64,000 bases of DNA from a bacterium (GTDB lineage Bacteria > UBP14 > UBA6098 > 4484-93): NCBI GenBank assembly GCA_021158465.1, contig JAGGUN010000019.1, positions 82,796-146,795 of the forward strand. Direction: 5' to 3'. Both the position numbers and the translations under genes were made by a program. Shown here in pieces: positions 31,173 to 55,809 of this stretch; the first letter of the stretch is position 1; each line of letters opens with the position of its first letter. The notes under the pieces are model-generated. The model had not been told where the DNA came from. It did no database searches and saw only the letters and a program-made list of their open reading frames with translations.

Positions 31173-32411
31173 TCACTTTATAAATGTTACCTTCTCAGAA
31201 GCGGTTCTGTTTCCCAATGTTGCCTTGACAATATATACCCCCGATGGAACTGACTTCGCTGGTCTCCAAACAGCTTCTGTCCTGTTCAAACTCCACTGAA
31301 CCTCCTGCAATTCTATCCTCTCGCCTTTTATGTTGAATATTTCAACATGGATTTCCCCGCGGGTTTGGTGGGGAGTATCGACCGAGATATAGCAGGCGGA
31401 GTTGAACGGGTTTGGGTACATCGAAATCGAGATTTGATCAGGGTGCAAGACCGCCGTCTCCTCCACCGGTGAGTGTCCCTCGATCGGGAGCCAGGCTACT
31501 ACCCATTCACTCGTTACCTCAAGATCGTCCAGTAGGACCCACTCGTCTGGCTCACTCTCATACAGATTTGGTATATAGAAGAAACCGTTGCTTCCGTAGA
31601 AAAACTCCGCTGTTCCAAACCATGGTGTATCGTTACAGGCATCTCCTGTCATCATATACCAGAAGGGTCTGCGGTGCGATGAGCCAAACTCTGTTACATC
31701 CGAGACATCTGCCCTTGCCTGAATATCTTCCATAGTACCAAGCGAACCCGTGAACATTGTTGCTTGCAGGTATATAAATATCTCCGCCTCACCTCTGTCT
31801 CCATAGTAGAGTGAATCTCCTGTTATCTCGTTACAGATGCCGATGTAGAATGTGGTGAATGTTGAATCACGGAGCCATAGCGTGTCCTGCCTCATCGACT
31901 TGAATTCGTATACTGTACCTCTTCCACCCTCAGCTTTCCTCCTCAGATGATGAATTTCCCCATCTGGATAGAATACAGGAGCGGTATTGGCATAGTTTGG
32001 TGGGATGCTGCCGTATCCTGGTATCCCGGGGCGATACTCTCCGACCGTCCCGGGAACGATTGTGCAGTGATGCTCTCTGGCGAGGATTGATATCGTATCG
32101 AGAATCGCCGCTATTCTCTCCCCGTATTCCCCAACAGGAACCCAGGATACATCTCCCATAGCGCCGAAAAACTCGACATAGGTGGTGAAACTGTACCCTG
32201 CGTTGACCATAAGTCCAAACTCTGGGGCTATTACCATATCGCAGTCCGGATGTTCCATAAGAACTGCTTTTATCCGCTCAAATATACCGTCCATTGCTGG
32301 GTAACTCCCCATCCACCGAACGGATGCAATCTTCACACTACCAGGAAGGTTGACTGAATGGAGAGAGATAATGGCGAGCGACAGAACAGTTTCTATGATC
32401 TTATGCGTCAT
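31173..32411 (-). CDS. Secreted protein with an N-terminal carbon-nitrogen hydrolase-like domain and a T9SS type-A C-terminal sorting domain.
   Basis: Possible Glu-Lys-Cys triad context (DMVIAPEFG ... K ... YIGICNEITGD) with spacing similar to the nitrilase superfamily. This is a low-confidence call. The C-terminal tail (MYPNPFNSACYISVD...IFNIKGERI...SGVYIVKATLGNRTASEKVTFIK) matches the Por secretion tail pattern. Confidence 0.55.
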   Translation of the reverse strand: MTHKIIETVLSLAIISLHSVNLPGSVKIASVRWMGSYPAMDGIFERIKAVLMEHPDCDMVIAPEFGLMVNAGYSFTTYVEFFGAMGDVSWVPVGEYGERIAAILDTISILAREHHCTIVPGTVGEYRPGIPGYGSIPPNYANTAPVFYPDGEIHHLRRKAEGGRGTVYEFKSMRQDTLWLRDSTFTTFYIGICNEITGDSLYYGDRGEAEIFIYLQATMFTGSLGTMEDIQARADVSDVTEFGSSHRRPFWYMMTGDACNDTPWFGTAEFFYGSNGFFYIPNLYESEPDEWVLLDDLEVTSEWVVAWLPIEGHSPVEETAVLHPDQISISMYPNPFNSACYISVDTPHQTRGEIHVEIFNIKGERIELQEVQWSLNRTEAVWRPAKSVPSGVYIVKATLGNRTASEKVTFIK

Positions 32412-35163: not shown

Positions 35164-37842
35164 ATGTGCGGCAGTGGCTCAATGGATAGAGCGGCAGATT
35201 CCGGATCTGCAGGTTGGAGGTTCAAGTCCTCTCTGCCGCACATCCTTCCCCTTGTTGTTCTCCTTTTCTCTTGCTTTACGGTCTATGCCGGCAAACCTGA
35301 ACCGGGCAAGATCGGTGTCATAGCGTACATCCTACCAAGACCGGACTATGACTCGCTTCAGGGGCAAACCCCATCCCGGATAATATCGCATCTTAAGCAA
35401 CTTGCTTCATCCTCGCAGGCGCAGGTCATCAGCTTCCTCCAGCAAAGAAGTGAAGAGGTTGACACCTTTATCTCCTTATGGACGATAAATGCAATATACA
35501 TTATGACCACACAGGATGTCGTCAGTGCGCTTGCCGAGAGAGAAGATATAGAGAAGATTGTGCCCGACCGTGAGCGGAGGCTTGGTGAGCCTATCTTGTC
35601 TGATGCGAAGGATGCCTGGGACAATATCGGTGCAATCCGGGCTGACGAGGTTCACTCGGAGCTCGGCATCGATGGCACGGGTGTTATAATCGGCAGTATG
35701 GATTCTGGCGTCGACGGCTTTCATCCGGATCTTGAGGGGAATTTTCTTGGTAATGTCGAGCCTGGAAGGGTTGCTTGGTTTGACCCGACAGATGAGTACC
35801 CGCTCTATCCACAGGACGGACACGGACACGGGACGCATACGATGGGGACGGTCTGTGGACAGGGTGGAACAGGTGTTGCTCCAGGCGCACTCTGGATGGC
35901 GGTGAAGATATTCAGGGACAACTCGACATCGAGGGACTTTATCATACATTCTGGCTTCCAGTTCATCGCTGACCCGGATGACAACGCCTATACGGATGAT
36001 TTCCCGAGGCTTGTTAATAACTCTTGGGGCGAGCTCTTCTGCCGTGAAGGGATGCTATACTACGATGATGTCAGATTGTGGCGGCTCCTGGGTATAATAC
36101 CCGTTTTTGCCATTGGGAATGATGGACCGGAGGCATCCTCGACAACTCCTCCAGGGAACTACCCGAATGTCATATCAACAGGAGCAACGGACGCTTCGAA
36201 CAACATCGCATATTTCTCAAGCCGTGGACCTGCGCCTTCAGGCTCCCCATGGTTCGGAGCAACAAAACCGGACTTCTCAGCGCCGGGTGTTGGCATTCTA
36301 TCAACTGAGGCTGGGACAGGTGGCTACACTCTGATGAGCGGAACGAGCATGGCATCCCCGCATATAGCGGGCACCATCGCACTTATGCTTTCTGCCAACC
36401 CGACACTCGATTACGATGATGTCTACCGTATCCTGTCGGAAACCTCAGTGGACATAGCCGATCCAGGAATGGATAATATCTCTGGCTATGGTCTGGTCGA
36501 TGCGTACCGGGCGGTTCAACTTGCTATAGAAATGCGAGCACCGAGAATATACCATACTCCAATCACTGACAGAGAATCCGCCAATGTGACATTTGTGGCA
36601 ACAGTTGTTTCACCAACATCGCCTCTGGATACATCGTCGGTTGCGCTTATTCTGACATTTAGCGGGATACCAGACACCATCCCGTTCATACCCTCAGGTG
36701 ATTCGTTTTTCTGTGAGGTTTCGTTTCCTGGCGAGGGGGATGTCCAGTATTTTATACAGGCAGCAGACTCATTGGGTAGATTGGGTTGCCTCCCAAAATC
36801 TGCTCCTGATTCTGTCTTTTCGTTTCACATTGGAAGAGACTCAATCCCTCCTATCATAGAGTTCACGCCTATAGACTCCGTGCTATCCTATCTCATGTTT
36901 CCGCAGGACATCTCGGTTGAGGTAAGCGACAACGGGGAGATAGATAGTGTCTGGATTGAGCTGACAGATGAAGCGGGAACGAGAAGTATCCCTCTCGAGT
37001 ACGACCCACTGTGGGGGGTATATTCTGGAGAGATTGATTTAGAGCCGATTGGTGAGTTTTTCTACAGGATTGTAGCTATGGACAGAGCCTCAAATCTGTC
37101 CAGCTATCCACCAGATTGGGACAGTCTCCGCGTTGAGGTAGTTGACGATGGCACAATTGATCTTCTGTGGAGCACAGTAACGGAGATACCCGATTTTATT
37201 CCACCGTATTATGATCAGGAGACATGGAGCGTATTGGAGGTTCCCTGGCACTGTCGGGTCGAGTCAGTAAAAACGAGGGTTCATCTTACTTATCCGAGGA
37301 TGAGGAATATTGTGGCTGTACTCTACTCACCATCCGGCACAGAGGTATATCTCCACAACAGGGCATCACTTACCGACAGTGTGAACATCTGGTATCCGGA
37401 CGACAGGAGCGAGGATGGTCCGGGCTCTCTTTCAGATTTTACTTACGAGGATGCAGCGGGTGTATGGTATCTATATGTCGCAGATAGAAACGAGATGTAT
37501 CATGGCTACTATGGGACGCTTTTTGAGTGGGAGCTTATGCTGTTCTGCTCATCTATTGCAGAGGTGGAAGAAAAAAGTGCTCTGCCTGGGAGGTTTAAGC
37601 TTTCCGCCTATCCGAACCCGTTCAATTCGACAACCAAAATTTTATACAGCATACCTGAAACCGAGAAGAAGGCGGTTATTGAAATTTACAACATATTGGG
37701 AGAAAAGGTAGATAGCTTCTGCGCTGAACCAGGGCTGCACACCATCCTCTGGGATACAAAGAAACTTCCATCGGGAGTCTACCTCTGCCTGCTGAAGGGG
37801 AAGACTACCTCCGCATCTTTGAAGCTCTCACTTTTGAGGTGA
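35164..37842 (+). CDS. Secreted subtilisin-like S8 serine protease with an N-terminal propeptide and a T9SS type-A C-terminal sorting domain. The only in-frame start codons lie within or just before the tRNA-Arg gene.
   Basis: Catalytic triad contexts: Asp (IGSMDSGVDGFHPDL), His (HGHGTHTMGTV), Ser (GTSMASPHIAGTIAL). Inhibitor_I9-like propeptide. C-terminal tail LSAYPNPFNSTTKILY...EIYNILGEKV...SGVYLCLLKGKTTSASLKLSLLR. The predicted signal peptide is MDRAADSGSAGWRFKSSLPHILPLVVLLFSCFTVYA. Confidence 0.8.
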   Translation: MCGSGSMDRAADSGSAGWRFKSSLPHILPLVVLLFSCFTVYAGKPEPGKIGVIAYILPRPDYDSLQGQTPSRIISHLKQLASSSQAQVISFLQQRSEEVDTFISLWTINAIYIMTTQDVVSALAEREDIEKIVPDRERRLGEPILSDAKDAWDNIGAIRADEVHSELGIDGTGVIIGSMDSGVDGFHPDLEGNFLGNVEPGRVAWFDPTDEYPLYPQDGHGHGTHTMGTVCGQGGTGVAPGALWMAVKIFRDNSTSRDFIIHSGFQFIADPDDNAYTDDFPRLVNNSWGELFCREGMLYYDDVRLWRLLGIIPVFAIGNDGPEASSTTPPGNYPNVISTGATDASNNIAYFSSRGPAPSGSPWFGATKPDFSAPGVGILSTEAGTGGYTLMSGTSMASPHIAGTIALMLSANPTLDYDDVYRILSETSVDIADPGMDNISGYGLVDAYRAVQLAIEMRAPRIYHTPITDRESANVTFVATVVSPTSPLDTSSVALILTFSGIPDTIPFIPSGDSFFCEVSFPGEGDVQYFIQAADSLGRLGCLPKSAPDSVFSFHIGRDSIPPIIEFTPIDSVLSYLMFPQDISVEVSDNGEIDSVWIELTDEAGTRSIPLEYDPLWGVYSGEIDLEPIGEFFYRIVAMDRASNLSSYPPDWDSLRVEVVDDGTIDLLWSTVTEIPDFIPPYYDQETWSVLEVPWHCRVESVKTRVHLTYPRMRNIVAVLYSPSGTEVYLHNRASLTDSVNIWYPDDRSEDGPGSLSDFTYEDAAGVWYLYVADRNEMYHGYYGTLFEWELMLFCSSIAEVEEKSALPGRFKLSAYPNPFNSTTKILYSIPETEKKAVIEIYNILGEKVDSFCAEPGLHTILWDTKKLPSGVYLCLLKGKTTSASLKLSLLR
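35168..35240 (+). tRNA. tRNA-Arg, anticodon CCG.
   Basis: A cloverleaf folded by hand. Acceptor stem GCGGCAG/CTGCCGC. D-arm GCTC-AATGGATA-GAGC. Anticodon stem GCAGA/TCTGC with loop TTCCGGA (U33, anticodon CCG, purine 37). Variable loop AGGTT. T-arm GGAGG-TTCAAGT-CCTCT. Discriminator A. CCA is not encoded. Length 73 nt. Confidence 0.85.
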
Positions 37843-38107
37843 CCTTCCTTGTTGTATGTTTCGTTTTCCTTGATGGAACACCCTTCTTTCTTGTTCTGCT
37901 CTTCTTTTCTATGCGGTCGTTTATACCGTTCCTGTCTTTATCGATGAAGTAGTCGAATAACCTGATAGAGGAGCTGGGTTTCTTCTTTTCGACCTTCTCT
38001 TGCTCCACTTCCGTTGTATCCCTGTCGCCTTTTTGCTCGCCCGCCGATGCAGAAGCAAATAATAGCACAAGTGTACTCACCACGATCGGTATCAGATACC
38101 TTCTCAT
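37805..38107 (-). CDS. Small (100 aa) secreted protein with a polybasic Lys/Arg/Ser/Thr-rich tail and an EF-hand-like DKDRNGINDRIE motif.
   Basis: Signal peptide MRRYLIPIVVSTLVLLFASASA. RBS on the minus strand (AAGGAGAGGGAGA). C-terminus KKSRTRKKGVPSRKTKHTTRKVTSKVRASKMRR. Its 3' end overlaps the convergent protease gene by 38 nt. Confidence 0.45.
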   Translation of the reverse strand: MRRYLIPIVVSTLVLLFASASAGEQKGDRDTTEVEQEKVEKKKPSSSIRLFDYFIDKDRNGINDRIEKKSRTRKKGVPSRKTKHTTRKVTSKVRASKMRR

Positions 38108-38108
38108 C

Positions 38109-39014
38109 TTATCTCCCTCTCCTTATCAGTTTCACACGGGTTGAACTTCCCCGAGCAGCTGTTGCTCTGAAGGAACCTTTGCTTGAGTATCCTATCGACG
38201 ACCTCTTGGTGATAGGACCCTTTGAAGGGTTCTTGCTTTTGATCTTGGTGGATTTGACCTCTTTATCATCCTTCCTCAGAAAAAACAAATTCTGTCTTCC
38301 CTTTTCAGGAATTTTTTTCTCCTTGGAACGCTCCGTCAGGGATTTCTTATTTCTCTCCAAGCCGATTGGTGAGTTTTTTCTCCTTCTCAGTGTTGTCGAG
38401 TTATCCTTTTTATGTTTCTTCCTTGTGCTGTTTTCCGTGGAGGTTTTCTCTATTATCTTCGCTACGCTTCCTGTACTTTTGCTCTTTGGCAGTATCTTTC
38501 TACCACCGACGGCACTGGCGACCTGCGTTACAGAGGAAGCAACCCTGCTTCCTGTATATCTTTTGACTTCGGCACTTCTATATTTCGCTGGTAAAAGCGA
38601 TGTCGATTCCCCCGGTTCCCTGAACAGCCCTCTTCTCCTCGTTATCCGGTATCCCGAGGTGGTGTAGCTGCCTCGATATCTGACCGGAGGTGGTTCATAG
38701 TAATAAGGGTAATAAGGATAATAATAGGGTGGGGAAGGGGGAGGCAGGTACCAGAGGAGAACTACCGGATGCCAGAAGCATCGGCAGTGCCAGCAGTAGG
38801 TGTCCAACCACCAATGGTCACAGCAAAGATGCCAACAACAGCAATCATCCCACCACCAGTCACAGCAGCAACAACAGCAGTCGTCAACAACAATGTCCGG
38901 TGGATCGGCAATGACCACACGGGAATGTGTTCTAAGCACTGTTTGGCAGCCGGAAAGTATGAGGGCAAAAACTACTACTGCACCGACCGCCATTATACCT
39001 TTATAATATCTCAT
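38109..39014 (-). CDS. Lipoprotein of 301 aa with an extreme Cys/Trp-rich tract, a Pro/Tyr-rich tract and a polybasic tail of about 200 aa predicted to be disordered.
   Basis: Strong RBS (AAGGAGGG, then 5 nt, then ATG). Lipobox MRYYKGIMAVGAVVVFALILSGC. The tract DDCCCCCCDWWWDDCCCWHLCCDHWWLDTYCWHCRCFWHP has 14 Cys and 6 Trp in 40 residues. This is followed by YLPPPSPPYYYPYYPYYYEPPP and then a Lys/Arg/Ser/Thr-rich C-terminal half. The start overlaps the upstream gene's stop by 14 nt. Confidence 0.5.
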   Translation of the reverse strand: MRYYKGIMAVGAVVVFALILSGCQTVLRTHSRVVIADPPDIVVDDCCCCCCDWWWDDCCCWHLCCDHWWLDTYCWHCRCFWHPVVLLWYLPPPSPPYYYPYYPYYYEPPPVRYRGSYTTSGYRITRRRGLFREPGESTSLLPAKYRSAEVKRYTGSRVASSVTQVASAVGGRKILPKSKSTGSVAKIIEKTSTENSTRKKHKKDNSTTLRRRKNSPIGLERNKKSLTERSKEKKIPEKGRQNLFFLRKDDKEVKSTKIKSKNPSKGPITKRSSIGYSSKGSFRATAARGSSTRVKLIRRGR

Positions 39015-39813
39015 TTTTGCCCTCCTTGTTATAAAGCTTTATCCTTTTATTTGTCCTTTCCCTCAGCTCCGGGTTGCCGGTGTCCGTCTGATAAGCCCAC
39101 TCGAACTGAACATAATCCGGGGTAACTTCTATTATCCATATCTTGGCAAAATGGTTGTCGCAGGTCCAGATAACATATCCCCAGCCAGGGTGTATCTCAA
39201 CCGTTGCCCCAGGTATATACCCATCTTCCGGTGCGTAGTCTATATCCTCGAACGAATATATCTGCCCGTAAACGAGAATATCCGTCATAGAGTTTGCACC
39301 GGAGAGCCAGTACATACCGTCGTAGTTGAAATATATATCAGCAGAGGGGTAATCCCACGGGACGAGCGAATACTCGGAGAAATCATACCCCGAATCATCC
39401 GGATAACGGTCCGCATCCCAGAGGATCGCAAAACCTTCGGGTCTCGGCGTGTCGAACACGAGGTCATCCGAGAGCTCCGATTCCACCCCAGACCACGAGA
39501 CAGAAGAGACTGCATAATAGTATGTCTTACCGTTTTCGGCAGAGAAATCAATAAAGTAGCTCGACAAGGTCTCACCGATAAGATAGTAATATCCCGTCTC
39601 ACTGTACCCGCGATAAACCCGGTAGCTCCAGGCTCCACAGGGGGTCCAGTAAAGATAGACCCGGTTGTCACCCGTCACCGAGTGCACATTCGTTGGAACA
39701 GGGGGAGGATAATCTCTACGAGCATGATAACAATAATCATCATAAACAACCACATCACACCCGAAGAATGCAAGGAGCGAGAGAAGAACATCTATGATGA
39801 CTACCCTCTTCAT
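39001..39813 (-). CDS. Lipoprotein with an FN3-like domain followed by an aromatic/Asp-rich beta-sandwich region.
   Basis: Signal and lipobox-like MKRVVIIDVLLSLLAFFGC. FN3-like segment (PPVPTNVHSVTGDNRVYLYWTP...YRVYRGYSETGYYYLIGETLSSYFIDFSAENGKTYYYAVSSVSWSGVESELS). First gene of the three-gene minus-strand operon. Confidence 0.55.
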   Translation of the reverse strand: MKRVVIIDVLLSLLAFFGCDVVVYDDYCYHARRDYPPPVPTNVHSVTGDNRVYLYWTPCGAWSYRVYRGYSETGYYYLIGETLSSYFIDFSAENGKTYYYAVSSVSWSGVESELSDDLVFDTPRPEGFAILWDADRYPDDSGYDFSEYSLVPWDYPSADIYFNYDGMYWLSGANSMTDILVYGQIYSFEDIDYAPEDGYIPGATVEIHPGWGYVIWTCDNHFAKIWIIEVTPDYVQFEWAYQTDTGNPELRERTNKRIKLYNKEGKNEIL

Positions 39814-40029: not shown

Positions 40030-40395
40030 ATTTATCTTTTAACGGCAAAAGGTGGTTTCTCTGCTGCACATTGGGTAAGAGGGTACCCGGGGAAATGCTC
40101 TCACCTACACGGACATAACTGGCAGGTTCAGCTAACCGTTAGGGTAGATGAGCTGGATTCACTCGGTATGGGGATCGACTTCTCCGAGCTAAAGGGCATC
40201 CTGAAGGAGATAACCGACCTTTTAGACCACACCTGCTTGAACGAGCTTCCGTTTTTTTCGGAGACGAACCCGACAGCCGAGAACATCGCAAGGTTTCTAT
40301 TCTACGAGGCAAAAAAGAGGCTCCCAAATGGTGTTAAACCCTATGAGCTGAAGCTCTGCGAGAGCGATAACAGCTGGATAACATACAGGGAGTAA
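40030..40395 (+). CDS. queD: 6-carboxy-5,6,7,8-tetrahydropterin synthase (QueD). No ATG, GTG or TTG start codon is available upstream of the conserved N-terminus, so the start is tentatively placed at an ATT codon.
   Basis: The in-frame translation upstream of the listed ATG at 40168 reads ...IYLLTAKGGFSAAHWVRGYPGKCSHLHGHNWQVQLTVRVDELDSLGMGIDFSELK. This carries the QueD zinc-binding Cys-x-His-Gly-His motif and the F-x-AAH motif. An in-frame TAA stop sits at 39979-39981. The RBS AAGGAGGGGG ends about 8 nt before ATT at 40030. Confidence 0.7.
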   Translation: MYLLTAKGGFSAAHWVRGYPGKCSHLHGHNWQVQLTVRVDELDSLGMGIDFSELKGILKEITDLLDHTCLNELPFFSETNPTAENIARFLFYEAKKRLPNGVKPYELKLCESDNSWITYRE

Positions 40396-41033
40396 TGCTC
40401 ATAAGCGAGATTTACAAGAGTATAAACGGTGAGGGAAGGTTCGCAGGCTTTCCAACCTCGATTGTGAGAGTAGCAGGTTGCAATCTTAGATGTTCCTGGT
40501 GCGATACAACCTATGCCTTAACAGGTGGAGAAAGGGTTTCTCTCGATGAAATAATGAGCAAGATACGGGAGTTCAACACCCGTCGTGTTCTCATAACCGG
40601 TGGTGAGCCTCTTCTACAAGAGGAAACCTATGAACTTGCAATGAGGCTACTTAAGGCAGGCTACCACACGCTTGTTGAGACAAACGGCTCGCTTCCGATA
40701 AACACACTCACCGAGGGGATTTTCCGGTGCGTCGATATAAAGACACCGTCATCGGGCGAGTCTGGAAAGAATCTGCTCGAGAATATAGAGTACCTCCTCC
40801 GTACCGACGATGTGAAGTTTGTTATAGCAGATAAGCACGATTTTGACTGGAGCCTCGATTTTACAAGAAGTTTCGACCTTACATCGAGGTGTGATGTACT
40901 CTTTTCTCCTGTCTGGGGCAAGCTCTCTCCTGATGTACTTGCCAGATGGATACTTGACTCCGGTATGGACATAAGGTTAAACCTCCAACTCCACAAACTC
41001 ATCTGGAAGGACAGGGAGGAGGGGATAAGGTGA
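40395..41033 (+). CDS. queE: 7-carboxy-7-deazaguanine synthase (QueE), radical SAM enzyme.
   Basis: Radical SAM cluster motif VRVAGCNLRCSWCDTTYA. Length about 210 aa. Sits between queD and queC with overlapping stop and start codons. Confidence 0.9.
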   Translation: MLISEIYKSINGEGRFAGFPTSIVRVAGCNLRCSWCDTTYALTGGERVSLDEIMSKIREFNTRRVLITGGEPLLQEETYELAMRLLKAGYHTLVETNGSLPINTLTEGIFRCVDIKTPSSGESGKNLLENIEYLLRTDDVKFVIADKHDFDWSLDFTRSFDLTSRCDVLFSPVWGKLSPDVLARWILDSGMDIRLNLQLHKLIWKDREEGIR

Positions 41034-41677
41034 AGGCTATTATTCTTCTTTCTGGTGGGCTGGACAGCACAACGACGCTTGCTGTCGCAATTGACAGAGG
41101 ATTCGAGATACTGCCGCTGCACTTAAACTATCGACACCGAGCGGAAAAGAAGGAGCTTGAGGCTTTCGATGCAATCCTCAACCACTACGGCATAGAAAGA
41201 AGGCTCGTCGTGGAGCTACCTTTCTTTTCCCGGTTTGAAAAGAGGGGGCTTGTCAACCCGGAGCTTGACCTGTCGGCTGAAAGCTATAACGATTCTCGCC
41301 TCTCATACCTCCCGTTCCGGAACGGTGTGATGCTCGCCATAGCTACAGCTGTTGCCGAGGAGGAAGAAGCGGAGGCAATATTTACAGGTGTTATGGAGGA
41401 GGATTCGTCCGGCTACCCCGACTGCCGTGAGAAGTTTATTCAAGACTTCCAGAAAGCGATAAGCTCAGGAACAAAAAAGGGAAACATAACGGTTATAACC
41501 CCTATCATTCACATGAAGAAGAGCGAGGTGGTGCTTCTGGGTAAAAGACTTGGTGTCCCGTTTCATCTTACCTGGTCCTGCTATGAGGGTGGTGAAAGCC
41601 CCTGTGGAAGGTGTGCAAGCTGTCTTCTGAGAAGGTCTGCATTTGAAGAGGCTGGCGTGAATGACCCGCTCATTTAA
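41030..41677 (+). CDS. queC: 7-cyano-7-deazaguanine synthase (QueC).
   Basis: PP-loop motif MKAIILLSGGLDSTT. C-terminal zinc-binding motif CGRCASCLLR. Confidence 0.9.
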   Translation: MKAIILLSGGLDSTTTLAVAIDRGFEILPLHLNYRHRAEKKELEAFDAILNHYGIERRLVVELPFFSRFEKRGLVNPELDLSAESYNDSRLSYLPFRNGVMLAIATAVAEEEEAEAIFTGVMEEDSSGYPDCREKFIQDFQKAISSGTKKGNITVITPIIHMKKSEVVLLGKRLGVPFHLTWSCYEGGESPCGRCASCLLRRSAFEEAGVNDPLI

Positions 41678-41716
41678 TTTTGCCGTTTTGACAAAAATTT
41701 TGCCATTTTGACAAAA
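41677..41716 (+). repeat. Tandem direct repeat, two copies of 20 bp (AATTTTGCCGTTTTGACAAA and AATTTTGCCATTTTGACAAA). Each copy contains TTGACA. It begins at the queC stop codon, upstream of the CheY-like regulator and htrA. Candidate regulatory site.
   Basis: Read directly from the sequence. Two adjacent 20-mers differ at one position. Confidence 0.6.
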
Positions 41717-41818
41717 ACCTTCGCACTGCAAAACTGTCAAATCCTGACAACCCTTTATAGCAAAGGGGTTACACTGGGTCTGGTTTTTTGGCATAAAATA
41801 TGCTTTTACCTTCTTGCG

Positions 41819-48498: not shown

Positions 48499-49397
48499 GA
48501 TCGATTGTTCTGCTGGCACTTTTGTTGCTCTCACCGACGCTCGTTATTGCTCAACCGGATACAACACAGGTCACCACAGACAACCTAACCGTCTCATCCG
48601 AGGTGAACAAAACAGCCCTCCCGCAGAACGATACCCTCATCTTAACCGTTAGCTTCCGTGTCAGCGGAGATATTGACAACTACATCTTCCACGAGATAAA
48701 GCCACCCACCGTCTCTAATCTGAAGCTCTTCAAAACATCATCTGCAAACAGAACAGCCGAGGAGAGCGGAGAGCTTATCACATACAGGGAATACAGATTC
48801 TACTACCTCCCTGTTTCTGTAGGTATGGGCTATATTGACCCCGCTATCCTCTCATACGATTTCGTTCCCGCGGGAACAACTCGCAGACTTGCGACGGCAA
48901 GGATCGAGGTTGAGATAAAAGAGCCTGTAAAGGTTAAGAAAGGTGGCTTCCCCATCTGGATCCTCGCGGTAATAATAGCTGTGGTTCTGGCTATCGTATC
49001 GGCTTATATTATCATCCACAGGCGCAGGAAAACCCCGAAAGAAGAAGAAGAGATACAGGTTCCGCTTGAAGAAGAACTGCTGGAGAAGCTTAAGGAGACA
49101 AAACAGCTACAAAAGGAGGACCCAGATGAGTTTATCGCCAGGATATCAATGCTCACGAGAAGATACATAGCGAGGAAATACAATATCCCTGCTGAGATCG
49201 CCTCGAGAGAGGAATTGGTGCAGGCTTTGAGCGAGCTTGGAGCTCCGAGCTTCTCCAAGTTCGAATGGATACTTAACAGGCTTGACGAGATAAAGTTCGC
49301 CAGGCGTAAACTCCAGACCACCGAAACAGAAGAATTATATGGAAAGCTTGAAGCCATACTGGAAGAGAATCTTCCCAAAGGAGGGGATAATGAATGA
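48495..49397 (+). CDS. BatD-like single-pass membrane protein, first of three BatD-family paralogs in this locus.
   Basis: Signal peptide (MRSIVLLALLLLSPTLVIA), beta-rich ectodomain, TM helix (IWILAVIIAVVLAIVSAYIII) followed by HRRRK. The cytoplasmic helical tail contains FIARISMLTRRYIARKYNIP. This tail resembles the 310-aa paralog (FTQLSDILREYLEARFDVP) and the BatD C-terminus (LISETLEKYISERLLIP). Confidence 0.45.
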   Translation: MRSIVLLALLLLSPTLVIAQPDTTQVTTDNLTVSSEVNKTALPQNDTLILTVSFRVSGDIDNYIFHEIKPPTVSNLKLFKTSSANRTAEESGELITYREYRFYYLPVSVGMGYIDPAILSYDFVPAGTTRRLATARIEVEIKEPVKVKKGGFPIWILAVIIAVVLAIVSAYIIIHRRRKTPKEEEEIQVPLEEELLEKLKETKQLQKEDPDEFIARISMLTRRYIARKYNIPAEIASREELVQALSELGAPSFSKFEWILNRLDEIKFARRKLQTTETEELYGKLEAILEENLPKGGDNE

Positions 49398-50379
49398 GGA
49401 GATTGTAAAGCTGAACGCTGAAATTGAGAAGGAGAGCGAATTCATTGACAGGATTCGTGAGGCAATTCACAAGAGGATAATCGGTCAAGAGGTACTAATC
49501 GACAGGCTACTGATAGGACTTTTATCCGATGGGCACATCCTACTCGAGGGTGTGCCTGGGCTTGCTAAAACACTCGCTGTCAGAACCCTCTCAGATGTTA
49601 TCAACACAAACTTCCAGAGGATTCAGTTCACACCAGACCTCCTTCCAGCGGACATAATCGGTACCCTTGTCTATAACCACCAAACAGGTGAGTTCATCAC
49701 CAAAAAAGGACCGATATTCTCCAACATCATCCTTGCTGATGAGATAAACCGCGCACCAGCAAAGGTACAGTCAGCACTACTCGAGGCAATGCAGGAACGA
49801 CAGGTAACCATCGGTGACGAGACTTTCAAGCTCGATTCGCCGTTCCTTGTTATGGCAACCCAAAACCCTATCGAACAGCAGGGAACATACCCGCTTCCTG
49901 AAGCACAGATCGACCGATTTATGCTGAAGGTGATCATAGATTATCCAAAGAGGGAAGAAGAGAAACAGATTATGAAACTTTACTCAGAGAAGAATTTTAT
50001 CCCTCTCGAACCCGTAGTCGAGCCAAAGGAAATACTCGCCGCAAGAGAACTGGTCAAGAAGATATATGTAGATGAGAAGATAGATAACTACATTCTCGAC
50101 ATCGTATTTGCCACACGACATCCAGAGAAATACGGAATGGAAGAGTTATCCGACCTTATTGCCTGGGGGGCATCACCGAGAGCAAGTATATACCTCAAGA
50201 AGGTTGCTCGTGCCCATGCCTTCATCAAGCACAGGGGGTATGTCACGCCAGAGGATGTCAGAGCAATGCTCTTCGATGTATTGAGGCACAGGGTTATCGT
50301 CACTTATGAGGCGGAGGCAGAGGAGTTGACATCCGAGGATATTATCCGCAAGATAGTCAACAGGATAGAGGTTCCATAA
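49390..50379 (+). CDS. MoxR-family AAA+ ATPase.
   Basis: IIGQEVLIDRLLIGLLSDGHILLEGVPGLAKTLAV (Walker A variant), LADEINRAPAKVQSALLEAMQERQVT and VMATQNP are all typical MoxR motifs. The start is set at ATG 49390 with RBS GGAGGGG. Confidence 0.9.
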   Translation: MNEEIVKLNAEIEKESEFIDRIREAIHKRIIGQEVLIDRLLIGLLSDGHILLEGVPGLAKTLAVRTLSDVINTNFQRIQFTPDLLPADIIGTLVYNHQTGEFITKKGPIFSNIILADEINRAPAKVQSALLEAMQERQVTIGDETFKLDSPFLVMATQNPIEQQGTYPLPEAQIDRFMLKVIIDYPKREEEKQIMKLYSEKNFIPLEPVVEPKEILAARELVKKIYVDEKIDNYILDIVFATRHPEKYGMEELSDLIAWGASPRASIYLKKVARAHAFIKHRGYVTPEDVRAMLFDVLRHRVIVTYEAEAEELTSEDIIRKIVNRIEVP

Positions 50380-50380
50380 T

Positions 50381-51256
50381 ATGATACCGAAGGAGATACT
50401 GAAGCGGATAAGGCGGATCGACCTCAAGACACGTCGACTCGTCAACGACATATTCTCCGGTGAATACCACAGCGTCTTCAAAGGCAGAGGTGTTGAATTC
50501 TCAGAGGTAAGGGAATACGCCGTTGGCGATGATATAAGAACGATAGACTGGAATGTCACTGCTCGGATGAACCGCCCGTATGTCAAGCTGTTCGAAGAGG
50601 AACGCGAGCTGACAGTTATGCTACTGTTCGACATAAGCTCATCCGGTGAGTTCGGCTCTGTCTCACGCCTGAAGCGAGACATCGCAGCGGAGATATGTGC
50701 CGTGCTTGCATTCTCCGCCATCCAGAACAACGACAAGGTTGGACTCATCCTCTTCACTGACACAATCGAGAAGTTCATCCCTCCAAAGAAAGGGAAAAGG
50801 CATATTCTCAGAATCCTGAGAGAACTTTTATACTATAAACCGCAGGACAAAAAGACCGATATTGCAGCCTCCCTTGAGTTTCTCCTTAGAGTGACACAGA
50901 AACGGACTATTTCTTTCCTCGTCTCAGATTTTATCGCAGAAGGATATGAAAAGCCGCTCGCTATAGCCAGCAAGAAGCATGACATAATCCCTGTGGTCAT
51001 AACCGACCCAAGGGAAATAAGCCTCCCATCTATCGGGCTTATTGAGCTTGAGGATGCAGAGACAGGCGAGATGCTGCTGCTCGATACCAAGGATATGAGC
51101 ATTATCAAACAGTTCTCGGAGAGCGCCGTTGCCTCGATAGAGAAGAGAAAAAATATCTTTAACTCCGTCGGGCTGGATACAATAGAAGTTTCAACCGACA
51201 CCGACTACCTGCCAAAGCTTGTGAGCTTCTTCCGCAGGAGGGAAAGAAGGCTTTAA
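50381..51256 (+). CDS. DUF58-family protein, the usual VWA-like partner of MoxR ATPases.
   Basis: VFKGRGVEFSEVREYAVGDDIRTIDWNVTARMNRPYVKLFEEERELTVMLLFDISSS is characteristic of DUF58. Confidence 0.85.
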   Translation: MIPKEILKRIRRIDLKTRRLVNDIFSGEYHSVFKGRGVEFSEVREYAVGDDIRTIDWNVTARMNRPYVKLFEEERELTVMLLFDISSSGEFGSVSRLKRDIAAEICAVLAFSAIQNNDKVGLILFTDTIEKFIPPKKGKRHILRILRELLYYKPQDKKTDIAASLEFLLRVTQKRTISFLVSDFIAEGYEKPLAIASKKHDIIPVVITDPREISLPSIGLIELEDAETGEMLLLDTKDMSIIKQFSESAVASIEKRKNIFNSVGLDTIEVSTDTDYLPKLVSFFRRRERRL

Positions 51257-51267
51257 AAGGAGGAAAG

Positions 51268-52185
51268 ATGGACAACAAACTTCTCAATATTGTTGCTATT
51301 GCTCTCCTCGTTCTAATATTCTTATTCTCCGTTCTAACCTGGGTCTCCGTAAGGGGGACCAAGGAAGAAAATTTATCTACTCTGATAAGCTATGCAAGTA
51401 GGCTCAGGGATTCGGGTCTGTATAAACAGGCTATCGAGACATACGAGAAGCTTCTGGAAAAGGGCAAGCTTAATAAAGAGAAAGCAGAGAACATAATCTA
51501 CACGATCGGGGCGATTTATATGGATGACCTACGAGATTACTCCAACGCTCTTGCTCAATTCTTGAAATTGCGAGAGCTATACCCAAAATCTAACCTCTTA
51601 TCCGATGCACAGAAGAGGATCGTTACCTGTCTGGAGCATATAGGAGAATCAGCGCAGGCGCAGAGAGAGCTTGAGAGAGCAACATCTGTGGGGAGGACAG
51701 AGGAGATCCGCCCAGGTGATATTGTTGTCGCTGAGATCGGTAAGAGAAGAATATCTCTCCGAGAGCTGGATAAGGCTTACAATAACCTCCCTGAACAGAT
51801 GAAGAAGCAGTTTGCAGGAAAGGCAGGGAAGAAGCAGTTCTTGTCGAGCTATGTTGCCCAAGAGCTTGTATATGATGCTGCTGTTCGAGCCGGGCTCGAT
51901 CAGGAACCAGAAATCGCAGAAACCATAGAAAACATCAAGAAGCAGATCCTTCTTCAGGAATACTATAAGAGAAATATAGGGAAGGAGATAAAACCGACGG
52001 AGTCCGACCTCCGGCTTTATTACGATGCACACAAGGATGAGTTCGAAGGGAAAGGCTTCAACGAGGTAAGAGAGACGGTGAAGCAGCGTTATACAGAGGA
52101 AAAGATAAAGGAGAAGGAACAGGAGCTTCTCTCAAAGATGCTCCAGTCACAGGATGTGAAGATATACCCTGATAGCGTAAGGTAA
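51268..52185 (+). CDS. Membrane-anchored protein with a TPR-like region and a SurA/PpiD N-terminal-like chaperone domain.
   Basis: N-terminal TM helix (LLNIVAIALLVLIFLFSVLTWVSV). TPR-like helices. A later segment (ISLRELDKAYNNLPEQMKKQFAGK...QFLSSYVAQELVYDAAVRAGL...KQILLQEYYK) resembles SurA N-terminal domains. Confidence 0.45.
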   Translation: MDNKLLNIVAIALLVLIFLFSVLTWVSVRGTKEENLSTLISYASRLRDSGLYKQAIETYEKLLEKGKLNKEKAENIIYTIGAIYMDDLRDYSNALAQFLKLRELYPKSNLLSDAQKRIVTCLEHIGESAQAQRELERATSVGRTEEIRPGDIVVAEIGKRRISLRELDKAYNNLPEQMKKQFAGKAGKKQFLSSYVAQELVYDAAVRAGLDQEPEIAETIENIKKQILLQEYYKRNIGKEIKPTESDLRLYYDAHKDEFEGKGFNEVRETVKQRYTEEKIKEKEQELLSKMLQSQDVKIYPDSVR

Positions 52186-52190
52186 AGCGT

Positions 52191-53123
52191 ATGAAAAGGG
52201 TTGCTCTCATACTGGCGATGGTTTTCACGGCATCGGCTCTCTACAGCGGGATCTCCGTATCGACCGAGGTAAGCAGGTCGGAGATAACTATCGGGGATAC
52301 CATCACATATGTAGTCCATATAGAGTATGATACGACACTTTCAGTCGAGCCACCTTCAGCAGCCGAGAACCTCGGGCAGTTCGAGATACGAGACTTCAAC
52401 ATAAGCGAGCCAGAAACACTCGGCAGCAAGGTCAAGCAAGAGTTCGCATACATCATCTCCACATTCGACATAGGAGAGTTCGAGATACCACCTATCGGGG
52501 TACTCTACAAAACCACTGACGACACAACCCTCAAGGCTATTATGACCCAGCCTGTCAAGATAACCGTCAACAGAATATCACCTGAAAACGCGACAGAAAT
52601 AAAGGATGTGAAAGACCCGGAAAGCTTGCCCTTCAACTACCGGAAGGTTATCATAATCTCCACCACCATCATTGTTGCTCTCCTTGTTGTTGGCTTTGTT
52701 CTCTACTACATAAAGCGGAAGAGAAAAAGGGTATCAATGCTTGGGTTCGCAGCTCCACATAGACCACCCGATGAGGTTGCACTCGAGCGTCTCCTCTCGC
52801 TCGATGAGTCAGAACTCCTTAAAAGAAAAGAATATAAGCAGTTCTTCACCCAGCTTTCGGATATACTCCGGGAGTATCTCGAAGCTCGCTTCGATGTTCC
52901 CGCCCTCGAGTCGACAACAAGCCAATTACTCCAACTTCTTGCTGACATTGATGAAATTGACAGAGATGTAATAGATAACATCACACAAATTCTGCAACTC
53001 TCTGATTTAGTTAAATTTGCAAAGTATATTCCTCTTGACGAAGAGGTTTCTGGGGTAATCGATGATGTTCGCTCGATAATCGAACAGACAAAAAGGGAAA
53101 AAGTAGTAGATGTCGCAGCTTGA
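52191..53123 (+). CDS. BatD-like single-pass membrane protein, second paralog.
   Basis: Signal peptide (MKRVALILAMVFTASALYSG). Ectodomain. TM helix (VIIISTTIIVALLVVGFVLYYI) followed by KRKRKR. The cytoplasmic helical tail shares a motif with the other BatD-like proteins. Confidence 0.45.
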   Translation: MKRVALILAMVFTASALYSGISVSTEVSRSEITIGDTITYVVHIEYDTTLSVEPPSAAENLGQFEIRDFNISEPETLGSKVKQEFAYIISTFDIGEFEIPPIGVLYKTTDDTTLKAIMTQPVKITVNRISPENATEIKDVKDPESLPFNYRKVIIISTTIIVALLVVGFVLYYIKRKRKRVSMLGFAAPHRPPDEVALERLLSLDESELLKRKEYKQFFTQLSDILREYLEARFDVPALESTTSQLLQLLADIDEIDRDVIDNITQILQLSDLVKFAKYIPLDEEVSGVIDDVRSIIEQTKREKVVDVAA

Positions 53124-54105
53124 TTTCCAGAACCCGTATATACTGTTTCTGATTCCGCTGGCGGTGCTCCTTTTTTGGCTCCTGGGGAAGCGTCGTGGAG
53201 GAGCGATCCGGTTCTCCTCGCTTAGGTTCATTAGAACCGATGGGAGGAAACCAAGTAAAAGGGTTGTCCTATATCCGCTTCTGAACATCTTAAGGTTGAT
53301 TATAATTCTTGTCATAATAGTTGCTCTTGCGAGACCCCGCTTTGGCAGGCAGGAGGAGAATGTCTACACGGAGGGGGTCGACATAATGCTCGTGTTTGAT
53401 GTCTCCTCGAGTATGAAGGCAGAGGATTTCAAGCCCAAAAATAGGATAGAGGCTGCAAAGGTTGTTGCCGAGGAGTTTATCAAAGGTAGAACGAATGACC
53501 AGATTGGGCTCGTAGTATTCGCTGCAAAGAGCTTCACGCAATGCCCGCTCACGATCGACTACGGTATAGTGATTAATTTCCTCAGGCAGACATACATCGG
53601 TATGATAGAGGATGGAACCGCAATCGGGACGGCAATCGCCACCGCAGTCAACCGCTTGCGCCACTCGAAGGCAAAGAGCAAGGTGATAGTCCTTTTGACA
53701 GACGGAGTAAACAATCGTGGAGAGATCGACCCAATAACAGCAGCTAAGCTCGCAAAGGCAATGAATATAAAAATTTATACCATCGGGATGGGCAGGAAAG
53801 GGTATGCTCTTTATCCCGTGGAGGACCCGATATTCGGTAAGAGGTATGTAAAGATGCCGGTGGAAATAGATGAGGAAACACTTAGACAGGTTGCATCCAT
53901 AACGGGTGGGCAGTATTTCCGAGCAACAGATGAAAACAAGCTCCGTGAGATTTATAAGCAGATAGACGAAATGGAAAAAACAAAGATCGAGGTTCAGAAA
54001 TTCGTTCGATACAAGGAGCTGTTCCCATACCTTGTCGGTCTGTCGGCTATCCTCCTGGTTCTACTGCTCATACTTGAGAACACATATTTGAGGAAACTGC
54101 CATAG
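53110..54105 (+). CDS. batA: BatA: aerotolerance-operon von Willebrand factor A (VWA) domain membrane protein.
   Basis: N-terminus MSQLDFQNPYILFLIPLAVLLFWLL. VWA MIDAS motif (IMLVFDVSSSM). C-terminal TM helix. Confidence 0.85.
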   Translation: MSQLDFQNPYILFLIPLAVLLFWLLGKRRGGAIRFSSLRFIRTDGRKPSKRVVLYPLLNILRLIIILVIIVALARPRFGRQEENVYTEGVDIMLVFDVSSSMKAEDFKPKNRIEAAKVVAEEFIKGRTNDQIGLVVFAAKSFTQCPLTIDYGIVINFLRQTYIGMIEDGTAIGTAIATAVNRLRHSKAKSKVIVLLTDGVNNRGEIDPITAAKLAKAMNIKIYTIGMGRKGYALYPVEDPIFGKRYVKMPVEIDEETLRQVASITGGQYFRATDENKLREIYKQIDEMEKTKIEVQKFVRYKELFPYLVGLSAILLVLLLILENTYLRKLP

Positions 54106-54117
54106 GGGAGGATAGAT

Positions 54118-55149
54118 ATGTTCAGGTTCGCGAACCAAGAGATGCTTTATCTACTTGTGCTGGTGGTGTGTTTGCCTTTTCTGTTTCACATCTTCGACAG
54201 ACATGCGAAAAGGCTCCTTGAACGGTTCGCTACTGGCAAGGCACTATCGGTTATTATCGACAGCGTTAACTGGAGGTCGAGGAGAATAAAGCGGGTCCTC
54301 TTTACTGTGGGTCTTTTCTTCCTTGTTCTCGCTCTTGCTCGCCCACAGTTCGGGACAAAGATCGAGGAGGTGAAGCGAAAGGGAATGAACCTTATCGTTG
54401 TGCTCGATGTCTCGAACTCGATGCTGGCGGAGGATGTCAAACCGAACAGACTAACCCGCTCCAAGATGGAGGTCTCAAGCATAATAGACAAGCTCAAGGG
54501 AGATAGGATCGGTATTGTTCTGTTTGCAGGCGAGGCTTTCCCTTATTGCCCTCTGACGCTTGACTATGAGGCTGCCAAGATGTTGCTTGCTGGGGCAGAC
54601 ACAAGAAGCATCTCTGCTCAGGGAACGAACATAGCAGCAGGCATCAACAAGGCAATTGAGATGTTCCCGAAACGAGAAAAGAAACATCTTGCTATCCTTG
54701 TGATAACCGACGGCGAGAATCTGGAGGGTGACCCCGAGGAGGCTGCGAAGCGCGCCGCAGAACAAGGTGTAAAGATATTCACCGTCGGGATAGGTTCACC
54801 TGCCGGTGAGCCTATACCTATCTGGAGTAAGGACGGTAAGAAGATCGGCTACAAGCGGGACGAGAACGGTAGCATCGTTACATCCAAGCTGGACGAGACG
54901 ACCCTGCAGAAGATTGCTCTCATCACCGACGGAAAGTACTATCGAGCAAGCCCAGGACAGGCTGAGCTGGACAAAATCTTCTCCGAGATAGAGAAGATAG
55001 AAACAGAAGAATTTGCATCGAAGAAGTTCACAACCTATGAGGACAGATATAGGTATCCTCTCACATTAAGCGGGCTACTTCTGCTCGCAAGTTTCCTGTT
55101 GAACGACAGAAAAAGAAGGAGAAAACAGTGGACTGGAGAGCAGTTTTAG
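54118..55149 (+). CDS. batB: BatB: VWA-domain membrane protein.
   Basis: N-terminus MFRFANQEMLYLLVLVVCLPFLF. MIDAS motif (LIVVLDVSNSM). C-terminal TM helix. Confidence 0.85.
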   Translation: MFRFANQEMLYLLVLVVCLPFLFHIFDRHAKRLLERFATGKALSVIIDSVNWRSRRIKRVLFTVGLFFLVLALARPQFGTKIEEVKRKGMNLIVVLDVSNSMLAEDVKPNRLTRSKMEVSSIIDKLKGDRIGIVLFAGEAFPYCPLTLDYEAAKMLLAGADTRSISAQGTNIAAGINKAIEMFPKREKKHLAILVITDGENLEGDPEEAAKRAAEQGVKIFTVGIGSPAGEPIPIWSKDGKKIGYKRDENGSIVTSKLDETTLQKIALITDGKYYRASPGQAELDKIFSEIEKIETEEFASKKFTTYEDRYRYPLTLSGLLLLASFLLNDRKRRRKQWTGEQF

Positions 55150-55808
55150 CGGTTGCTCTTCTTCTTTGCCCGTTTTATGCTCTTTATGCCGATTCTCCGA
55201 GAAAAACAAACGAGGATGGAATAGAACTTTACAAGCAGGAAAGGTTTGACGAAGCTCTTGAACGGTTCCGTTCAGCTCAGCTGGACAAGCCAGAAAGCCC
55301 CATACTCCACCATAATGTTGGCGTCTCACTGTATAAGATGAAAAAGTATGACAAAGCAATAGAGGAGCTCAGCAAAGCTATACCTGAGGCGAAAGACTCT
55401 TTACTTACCTCAAAGATCTACTATAATATAGGAAACTGCTATTTCAAGATGGACAGCCTTATGAACAGCATATTCTTCTATCAGCAAGCACTGAAACTGA
55501 ACCCGAATGACGAGGACGCAAAATATAACCTTGAACTTGCGCTGTCACTTCTGAAGCAGAGCTCCAAAAAGAAGCAGATACAAGGTCAGCAACAACAACA
55601 GCAACAACAGCAGCAACAACAGCAACAACAGCAACAACAGCAGCAAGGGCAAAAGGGACAGCAGGGAGAACAGGAGAAAAAAGAGGGCGAGATATCAAGG
55701 GAGGAGGCAGAGCGGATCCTTGACGCCCTGGAAGAGCAGGAAAAAGAGACGCAAAAGGAACAGGTAAGGCAACTCCCGGGGAGAGGGATACCTGGTAAGG
55801 ACTGGTAA
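55128..55808 (+). CDS. batC: BatC-like TPR protein containing a poly-glutamine tract.
   Basis: Signal or TM N-terminus. TPR repeats (YYNIGNCYFKMDSLMNSIFFYQQALKLNPNDEDAKYNL). A 24-residue Q-rich run, then an acidic coiled tail. It follows batB with a 22-nt overlap. Confidence 0.7.
   Translation: MDWRAVLAVALLLCPFYALYADSPRKTNEDGIELYKQERFDEALERFRSAQLDKPESPILHHNVGVSLYKMKKYDKAIEELSKAIPEAKDSLLTSKIYYNIGNCYFKMDSLMNSIFFYQQALKLNPNDEDAKYNLELALSLLKQSSKKKQIQGQQQQQQQQQQQQQQQQQQQQGQKGQQGEQEKKEGEISREEAERILDALEEQEKETQKEQVRQLPGRGIPGKDW
55587..55646 (+). repeat. (CAA/CAG)n simple-sequence repeat of about 60 nt encoding polyQ within batC.
   Basis: Read directly: cagcaacaacaacagcaacaacagcagcaacaacagcaacaacagcaacaacagcagcaa. 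Confidence 0.9.
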
Positions 55809-55809
55809 G

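Follow-up and report, generated by a model that had tools for sequence, protein, structure and literature searches.

A Cys/Trp-rich lipoprotein tract with the marks of selected coding sequence in an undescribed envelope gene cassette

We analysed a 64,000-nucleotide (nt) stretch of contig JAGGUN010000019.1 (assembly GCA_021158465.1; the whole stretch is called the window below), in which a predicted lipoprotein gene on the minus strand encodes a tract rich in Cys and Trp. Comparison with an ortholog indicates that this tract is genuine minus-strand coding sequence under selection, and we are almost certain of its identity as the coding Cys/Trp head of an exported lipoprotein from an undescribed cassette family. 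Bacterial proteins hardly ever show runs of six Cys beside runs of Trp, and here such runs appear to be translated, selected sequence as opposed to the shadow of a polyglutamine (polyQ) repeat. A search of 5.8 billion proteins returned the identical protein (hypothetical protein J7K18_02350 of an unclassified bacterium) and one ortholog, P0002, which belongs to candidate division Zixibacteria bacterium 4484_93 and shares 60% identity. The gene order at the locus of the ortholog (L001) was the same as in the window, with queC, queE and queD on one side, followed by genes of 270, 296 and 101 amino acids (aa). The codon alignment of the window gene with P0002 contained many synonymous TGC/TGT, TAT/TAC and GAT/GAC exchanges in the Cys/Trp frame. 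The ratio of nonsynonymous to synonymous substitution rates (dN/dS) was 0.083 in alignment columns 36-115, tract included, 0.42 in the tail and 0.29 over the whole gene, figures that count for less in coming from a single ortholog pair in which the tract supplies only about 34 synonymous sites. All five insertions or deletions in the head region (alignment columns 31-130) comprised whole codons. The frame proposed in the first-pass annotation of this DNA was therefore upheld, with the ortholog keeping the Cys/Trp pattern under purifying selection.

An alternative explanation is that the minus-strand open reading frame (ORF) is spurious and that the true feature is a plus-strand polyQ ORF, a non-coding simple repeat or an assembly artefact, which we consider effectively refuted and to which we assign a negligible probability. 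The plus-strand ORF at 38800-39006 does exist as described (68 aa, GTG start, QQQQ and QQQQQQ runs), but conserved plus-strand polyQ, envisaged at first pass, was not seen in the ortholog: the stretch that begins VSNHQWSQQRCQQQQSSHHQSQQQQQQ in the window reads CQQ*VSHHQ*S*QQQQSSHQ*S*QQQ there, with stops in the polyQ frame. In two of the three opposite-strand frames the dN/dS ratios were 0.9-2.2. The third (0.22) was ruled out as coding, with 8 stops here and 17 in the ortholog, and its low value is due to a wobble position shared with the real frame. Codon-usage log-odds trained on 16 confident genes slightly favoured a plus-strand frame inside the tract, which speaks for a spurious ORF; however, the training genes contain few Cys and Trp codons, so that the score is uninformative there, and we relied on the comparative evidence instead. 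A six-frame scan of the window also bore out that the polyQ repeat of batC (55587-55646) gives poly-Cys on its antisense, so the earlier caution over antisense frames of polyQ was well founded and the question of the strand a fair one. Against this, the minus frame is open without interruption over 301 codons, as first described, and is accompanied by a ribosome-binding site, a lipobox, synteny and family-wide homology. The concern that the tract could be an assembly artefact did not hold, since a cluster member (P0133) with an identical tract and two differing tail residues was found on six other contigs.

The structure of the DNA itself was evaluated with Tandem Repeats Finder at a minimum score of 30, which called no repeat in 38766-38885. 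The only nearby match was a 9-nt repeat encoding YYP at 38700-38724, and the true (CAA/CAG)n of batC was found as a control. With no trinucleotide tandem array called, the earlier description of the tract as a (CAR)n-like simple repeat proved too strong. The proposal that its composition arose from a polyQ-type repeat read in the opposite frame was not supported either, as the similar heads of relatives have different DNA. The richness in CAR on the plus strand is caused by the TGY and TGG codons on the minus strand. The tract DNA of the window contained imperfect direct copies lying 36-42 nt apart (71-88% identical), and that of the ortholog at L001 two copies 33 nt apart (92% identical); at the peptide level the duplicated unit is approximately DDCCxCCCxDxWW. 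P0134, a strain variant of the ortholog found on two contigs, lacks 11 codons in frame inside the tract (L001 6144-6201), a gap that equals the 33-nt spacing of the copies and shows the tract to be length-polymorphic by in-frame gain or loss of units. Judged from these sequences, the tract DNA appears to be a decayed in-frame duplication of 33-42-nt units that grows and shrinks by the unit.

The N-terminus encoded by the lipoprotein ORF is MRYYKGIMAVGAVVVFALILSGC, and further along the translation reads, in order, DIVV, DDCCCCCCDWWWDDCCCWHLCCDHWWLDTYCWHCRCFWHP, VVLLW, YLPPPSPPYYYPYYPYYYEPPP and VRYRG. The strong ribosome-binding site and the lipobox claimed for this ORF at first pass were both present (AAGGAGGG and L-S-G-C), and the ortholog has AAGGAGGA at the Shine-Dalgarno position. 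The N-terminus MRYYKGIMAVGAVVVFALI-LSGC matches the pattern of signal peptidase II substrates, [LVI][ASTVI][GAS]C; the lipobox of the relative P0123 is LGGC, and most other family members carry ordinary signal peptides. Inspection of the signal peptide of the lipoprotein revealed no twin-arginine motif, which points to export by the Sec route, any cofactor then being acquired after export. The spacer between the lipid anchor and the head has 20 residues and is conserved. The reported cluster of 14 Cys after the lipid anchor was recovered in the translation (15 Cys counting that of the lipobox), although its numbering as residues of about 41-80 was some three too low, the true span being 44-83; the interval 38660-38894 given for it encloses both the Cys/Trp and the Pro/Tyr tract. 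The 40 residues of the Cys/Trp tract also hold 1 Tyr and 1 Phe, and the head has a net charge of -6 and an isoelectric point (pI) of 4.4. A minus-strand translation of the cassette described below would yield peptides such as EPGESTSLLPAK and VASSVTQVASAVGGR. AlphaFold, run on a 4-sequence alignment, gave a mean predicted local distance difference test (pLDDT) score of 41, with about 35 in the tract region and about 35-45 in the 170-residue tail, and residues 2-30 formed the sole confident helix.

Cys and Trp make up 0.78% and 1.3% of the residues of the 16 confident genes of the window, and the probability of finding at least 14 Cys in 40 residues against this background is about 6e-20. Stop-free 40-aa stretches with at least 22 Cys+Trp occurred twice in the six frames of the 64-kb window, once as the lipoprotein tract and once as the non-coding antisense of the batC polyQ repeat (~55589-55708). 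Translated, the latter gives 20 Cys in a row within a frame that has no stop over more than 40 codons, and it forms a natural decoy for the Cys tract. For gene callers, the two provide an example, within one window, of how a real poly-Cys frame can be told from the antisense of polyQ.

Overall, we conclude that the lipoprotein is a member of a small, previously undescribed family and the middle gene of a conserved envelope cassette of the FCB group. It matched no Pfam family at E<=0.01, no NCBIfam model at E<=1 and no PDB sequence, and the same databases returned nothing meaningful for its two cassette neighbours and for the 13-member family alignment. Word-indexed searches were weak, a single protein finding itself and one ortholog and a 7-sequence profile finding 2 proteins, and a genome scan for the lipoprotein returned the 4484_93 locus only. 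The family was visible only through synteny and an exhaustive HMMER search, in which a profile of head plus motif identified 10 proteins at E<=0.001 among 1.84 billion representatives. All ten (209-324 aa) share the same layout, namely a signal peptide, an acidic head of Asp with Cys, Trp, Tyr and His, the motifs RYR and RRRG(L/M/F), and a Ser/Thr/Lys/Arg tail with a basic end. The window protein has this layout as well as the family position directly downstream of a gene for an FN3 lipoprotein, often overlapping it. Synteny walks from homologs of the FN3 gene added members from contigs of Zixibacteria, WOR-3 and Gemmatimonadota, and on a KSB1 contig the downstream gene encodes a protein hardly enriched in aromatic residues, in which DUF4384 is fused to the RRRG motif and a basic tail. 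In most of the relatives found by HMMER the core reads WPxCCRRIVxIYYSPCGWYRYxYYDYPCxGCERVYVExRWVYRR...RRRGL, and several carry poly-Cys runs of their own (CCCC, CCCCC). Two residues of the RRRG motif (R126 and G128 in P0124 numbering) were invariant over the 13 aligned sequences, among which the window protein is divergent, its SPCG...PCxGC core being replaced by the Pro/Tyr segment. In the literature on DUF4384, Cys/Trp-rich lipoproteins, homorepeats and Zixibacteria we found no prior description of the family or the cassette.

The head varies widely in composition. Across relatives, the best 40-aa stretch contained 0 to 14 Cys, and among those first collected the richest 40 residues held about 12-25 Cys+Trp+Tyr, the KSB1 protein excepted. 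The split between Cys, Trp and Tyr was 14/8/1 in the window protein, 11/7/6 in the ortholog, 2/9/13 in a WOR-3 type and 2/5/17 in another relative; the window lineage is the Cys-rich extreme of a mostly Trp/Tyr-rich family. Replacements in the tract from the window protein to the ortholog included four Cys-to-Tyr, two His-to-Tyr and one Trp-to-Tyr, and the codons for Cys, Trp, Tyr, His and Asp involved (TGY, TGG, TAY, CAY and GAY) are single-nucleotide neighbours. Only a few Cys columns were conserved in the 13-sequence alignment. Selection thus appears, from these alignments, to keep a composition (acidic plus thiol/aromatic) and not fixed ligand positions, which weakens a classical metallothionein or disulfide-knot reading and would still leave room for a loose, multivalent metal or thiol chemistry.

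The lipoprotein gene (gene 2) points to a larger three-gene envelope cassette, whose FN3 component (gene 1) has more than 1,240 homologs, including some in Ignavibacteria-like lineages. The stop of gene 1 overlaps the start of gene 2 by 14 nt, and gene 3 starts 1 nt past the stop of gene 2, so that the cassette genes of the window are very probably co-translated. Homologs of gene 1 were found in Zixibacteria, KSB1, WOR-3, Gemmatimonadota and Melioribacteraceae, and Foldseek with the gene 1 model gave generic FN3 matches only. The order of FN3 gene and gene 2 is shared by the window, L001, L004-L006, L009 and L011. Overall, the cassette comprises the FN3 lipoprotein, the aromatic/Cys-rich protein with its basic tail, an optional DUF4384-PEGA protein and a small protein with a DxNxNG motif; the flanking genes vary between genomes, and the core cassette genes have no Pfam or NCBIfam models. 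The gene 3 family motif, F-x-D-x-N-x-N-G-(I/V)-(D/N)-D, resembles a DxDxDG-type calcium loop. A scan for promoters and terminators gave counts no higher than those of shuffled controls.

In a broader comparison, 57 metagenome loci of the FN3 gene were examined (within L012-L091). At class A loci the gene after the FN3 gene was of the aromatic-rich, basic-tailed type, sometimes fused behind DUF4384, and at class B loci it encoded a protein of about 150 aa (DUF4783 by Pfam in L010) ending in ...TQITIN. The gene 3 motif was found downstream of gene 2 in 19 of 26 class A loci, compared to 0 of 28 class B loci, and all class A relatives had Ser/Lys/Arg tails comparable to that of the window protein. 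The linker that follows the lipobox of the FN3 lipoprotein was always acidic, and in the partner of the window protein it is short and rich in Asp, Tyr and Cys right after the lipid anchor. Cys occurred in this linker only alongside a class A gene 2, with a mean of 1.2 versus 0 in all 22 class B loci (22/22). At many loci the proteins of genes 2 and 3 tend to end in a Ser-rich run followed by a short basic motif (...RRSK, ...TRSK, ...RRTK, ...SRRRK), the window versions being RRGR and SKMRR; this shared motif could be a sorting or binding signal. Coordinates of the features are collected in Table 1.

Table 1 Features of the Cys/Trp-rich lipoprotein gene, its cassette and related loci.
Feature	Coordinates	Strand	Basis or remarks
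Cys/Trp-rich lipoprotein gene (cassette gene 2)	38109..39014	-	301-aa ORF; identical protein P0001; 60%-identical syntenic ortholog P0002
Shine-Dalgarno AAGGAGGG	39020..39027	-	5 nt 5' of ATG; inside 3' end of upstream gene
Signal peptide with lipobox LSG-C, residues 1-23; Cys23 predicted to be lipidated	38946..39014	-	sequence; invariant in ortholog
Spacer QTVLRTHSRVVIADPPDIVV, lipid anchor to tract	38886..38945	-	near-invariant between window and ortholog; similar in P0123
Cys/Trp tract DDCCCCCCDWWWDDCCCWHLCCDHWWLDTYCWHCRCFWHP, residues 44-83	38766..38885	-	14 Cys, 8 Trp, 7 Asp, 3 His; net charge -6
Hydrophobic, Pro/Tyr-rich segment VVLLWYLPPPSPPYYYPYYPYYYEPPP, residues 84-110	38685..38765	-	aligns to YYSPCGWYRYxYYDYPCxGC core of relatives
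Basic motif block VRYRGSY...ITRRRGLF, residues 111-131	38622..38684	-	RYR and RRRG(L/M/F) recur in relatives
Ser/Thr/Lys/Arg-rich polycationic tail, residues 132-301	38112..38621	-	net charge +35, pI 11.4; predicted disordered
Antisense 'polyQ' ORF, 68 aa, not a gene	38800..39006	+	frame broken by stops in Q-rich part of ortholog
Gene 1: 270-aa lipoprotein, FN3 domain and second beta-sandwich	39001..39813	-	>1,240 homologs; AlphaFold pLDDT 84.7; Foldseek
Gene 3: 100-aa secreted protein, FIDKDRNGINDRIE (DxDxNG calcium-loop-like motif), basic tail	37805..38107	-	ortholog in L001
Three- or four-gene cassette loci	window 37805-39813 (-); L001 5202-7245; L004 730-3833; L005 4001-6244; L006 4001-6923; L009 4001-6796; L011 2572-4710		

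For the role of the protein, we propose that the exported head would lie next to the membrane surface and serve there as a multivalent module for binding or cross-linking, acting via thiols, carboxylates, imidazoles and aromatic rings. Its targets could be soft metal ions or metal-sulfide surfaces; alternatively, disulfide or shared-metal bridges might connect it to the Cys/Asp/Tyr-rich linker of the FN3 lipoprotein, while the tail, with its charge of +35, would bind anionic envelope polymers. Taken as a whole, we regard this as the best explanation, at somewhat short of an even chance, and its mechanistic part, a membrane-proximal multivalent head with a polycationic anchor tail, is put forward more tentatively still. 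Several observations weigh against it. No profile match points to any biochemical function, and AlphaFold was not confident beyond the signal helix. Trp is not a metal ligand, and the free exchange of Cys and Tyr speaks against defined metal sites. The rank correlation between Cys in the FN3 linker and Cys in gene 2 was weak (rho 0.38, p 0.057), and the linker of the FN3 partner in the window has a single Cys.

If the head does bind metals or cross-link the envelope, the protein would represent a new type of extracytoplasmic low-complexity protein, and the gradient from Cys to Tyr over lineages could serve as a natural experiment on the adaptation of a module to redox conditions. A bolder form of the proposal, which we hold to be improbable, is that the cassette builds a novel envelope matrix of the FCB group that binds or templates a metal or metal-sulfide mineral or relays electrons. 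The electrons would pass along stacks of redox-active side chains (Cys, Tyr and Trp), with mineral binding and relay alike placed at the cell surface, and the use of Cys for Tyr in the Zixibacteria-like lineage might be an adaptation to sulfidic hydrothermal sediment. Three other candidates were dropped during the analysis, namely a cytochrome or heme-binding protein (no CxxCH motif), an Fe-S protein exported by the twin-arginine route (no such motif) and the precursor of a ribosomally synthesized and post-translationally modified peptide tied to the adjacent radical-SAM gene, as that gene is QueE of the queD-queE-queC cluster.

Among other functional readings, the one that survives best is a metallothionein-like metal sponge, developed from an idea of the first-pass annotation, in which the 14 Cys with His and Asp would chelate Cu, Zn or Cd at the membrane for detoxification or storage; we think it unlikely. 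The density of Cys, His and Asp in the head is very high, poly-Cys runs recur in P0124, P0126, P0128, P0129 and L013, and CxxC-type spacings are present (CWHC in the window protein, PCxGC in the core of relatives), but no Pfam (E<=0.01) or NCBIfam profile matches, and four of the 14 Cys are Tyr in an ortholog of 60% identity. Classical metallothioneins are poor in aromatic residues, and this head has 8 Trp in 40 residues; many family members have an equivalent head with 0-3 Cys. The closest relatives come from a metagenome-assembled genome, that of Zixibacteria 4484_93, whose habitat we take to be Guaymas-type hydrothermal sediment and which would suit a metal-binding protein, yet the gene neighbourhood is of the housekeeping kind and free of metal-resistance genes.

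We consider it slightly less likely again that the head is a tolerated low-complexity spacer, a set of codons (TGY, TGG, TAY, CAY, GAY) expanded by slippage and without a specific role. In that case the composition of the head would drift, and importance would be confined to the RYR/RRRG block, the tail and the partner proteins. The in-frame length polymorphism, the decayed duplications in the tract DNA, the wide range of head composition over the family and the adjacency of all the enriched residues in the genetic code are consistent with such a spacer. However, the dN/dS of the tract is the lowest in the gene, the aromatic/acidic head is kept in Zixibacteria, WOR-3 and Gemmatimonadota contigs, and no residues in this genome are costlier or rarer than Cys and Trp. 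A small folded domain knotted by disulfides and displayed on the lipoprotein, the other idea of the first-pass annotation, is improbable, for although the positionally conserved Cys in the core of relatives (CC-RR, SPCG, PCxGC) could form two or three disulfides, the window protein has the Pro/Tyr segment in place of that core, a defined knot could not pair every Cys in a run of six, the Cys positions of the tract are not conserved, the pLDDT of the region is about 35, and the organisms are probably anaerobes of reducing sediments.

Elsewhere in the window, the queD-queE-queC cluster for the 7-deazaguanine/queuosine precursor lies divergent from the cassette at 40168-41677 (+), an arrangement kept in the Zixibacteria 4484_93 contig (L001 3347-4892), and a 20-nt unit, AATTTTGCCATTTTGACAAA, is repeated at 41676-41717 (2.1 copies, 95% match) between queC and a response-regulator gene. 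A complete Bat-type operon spans 49339-58382 (+) and encodes a MoxR AAA ATPase, a DUF58 protein, a SurA_N-like protein, a BatD-like protein, two VWA proteins (one with a BatA N-terminal domain), a TPR/polyQ protein, BatD and a TPR+SH3 protein. The TPR protein at the BatC position of this Bat/MoxR operon (55128-55808, +) contains the near-perfect (CAA/CAG)n polyQ at 55587-55646. Two proteins, at 35164-37842 (+) and 31173-32411 (-), carry Por_Secre_tail, the C-terminal sorting domain of type IX secretion, one of them being an S8 subtilase with a P-domain; the organism thus belongs to a lineage of FCB type that bears the type IX secretion system.

Compared to known systems, the window protein is similar to metallothioneins (bacterial SmtA/BmtA; ciliate CC/CCC type) in its Cys density including adjacent Cys, its His and Asp and its low complexity, and on the strength of its sequence metal binding is plausible. 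It differs from these cytosolic proteins in its predicted export and lipid anchor, in its richness in Trp and Tyr, in Cys positions that are not fixed and swap with Tyr, and in its 170-residue polycationic tail and three-gene envelope cassette. None of the three marks of a metallothionein was found (a profile match, a conserved Cys pattern, few or no aromatics), and we conclude that it is not one. Likewise, neither of the two marks of a trinucleotide or polyQ repeat, a tandem array and a conserved polyQ frame, was present.

Puroindolines are found in plants, and their helical fold, with its ten Cys, is conserved. Together with the hordoindolines of cereal seeds they are basic and Cys-rich, with a Trp-rich loop that binds polar lipids (PMC6008550). 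By analogy, the Trp-rich stretch, the many Cys and the overall basic charge of the window protein make a role at the membrane surface conceivable, although there is no sequence relationship and the tract differs in its acidity, its repeats and its lack of positional conservation. A closer connection exists with DUF4384(+PEGA) proteins (PF14326/PF08308): RRRG and a basic tail are fused behind DUF4384 in Gemmatimonadota and KSB1 loci, the Gemmatimonadota protein also has the aromatic/RYR segment fused, and a DUF4384-PEGA gene lies inside the cassette in WOR-3 and one Zixibacteria-like locus. However, the window protein has no PF14326 match, and DUF4384 is itself uncharacterised.

Mussel foot proteins, the spore-coat proteins CotG/CotB and silaffins are low-complexity matrix or adhesive proteins with Tyr/Cys heads and Ser/Lys/Arg tails. 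The comparison with these is an analogy only, as they show no homology and belong to other organisms and compartments, and no modifying enzyme (kinase, tyrosinase) is encoded near the cassette. Similar to these proteins, the window protein combines aromatic/thiol blocks with cationic Ser/Lys/Arg blocks and evolves by repeat expansion.

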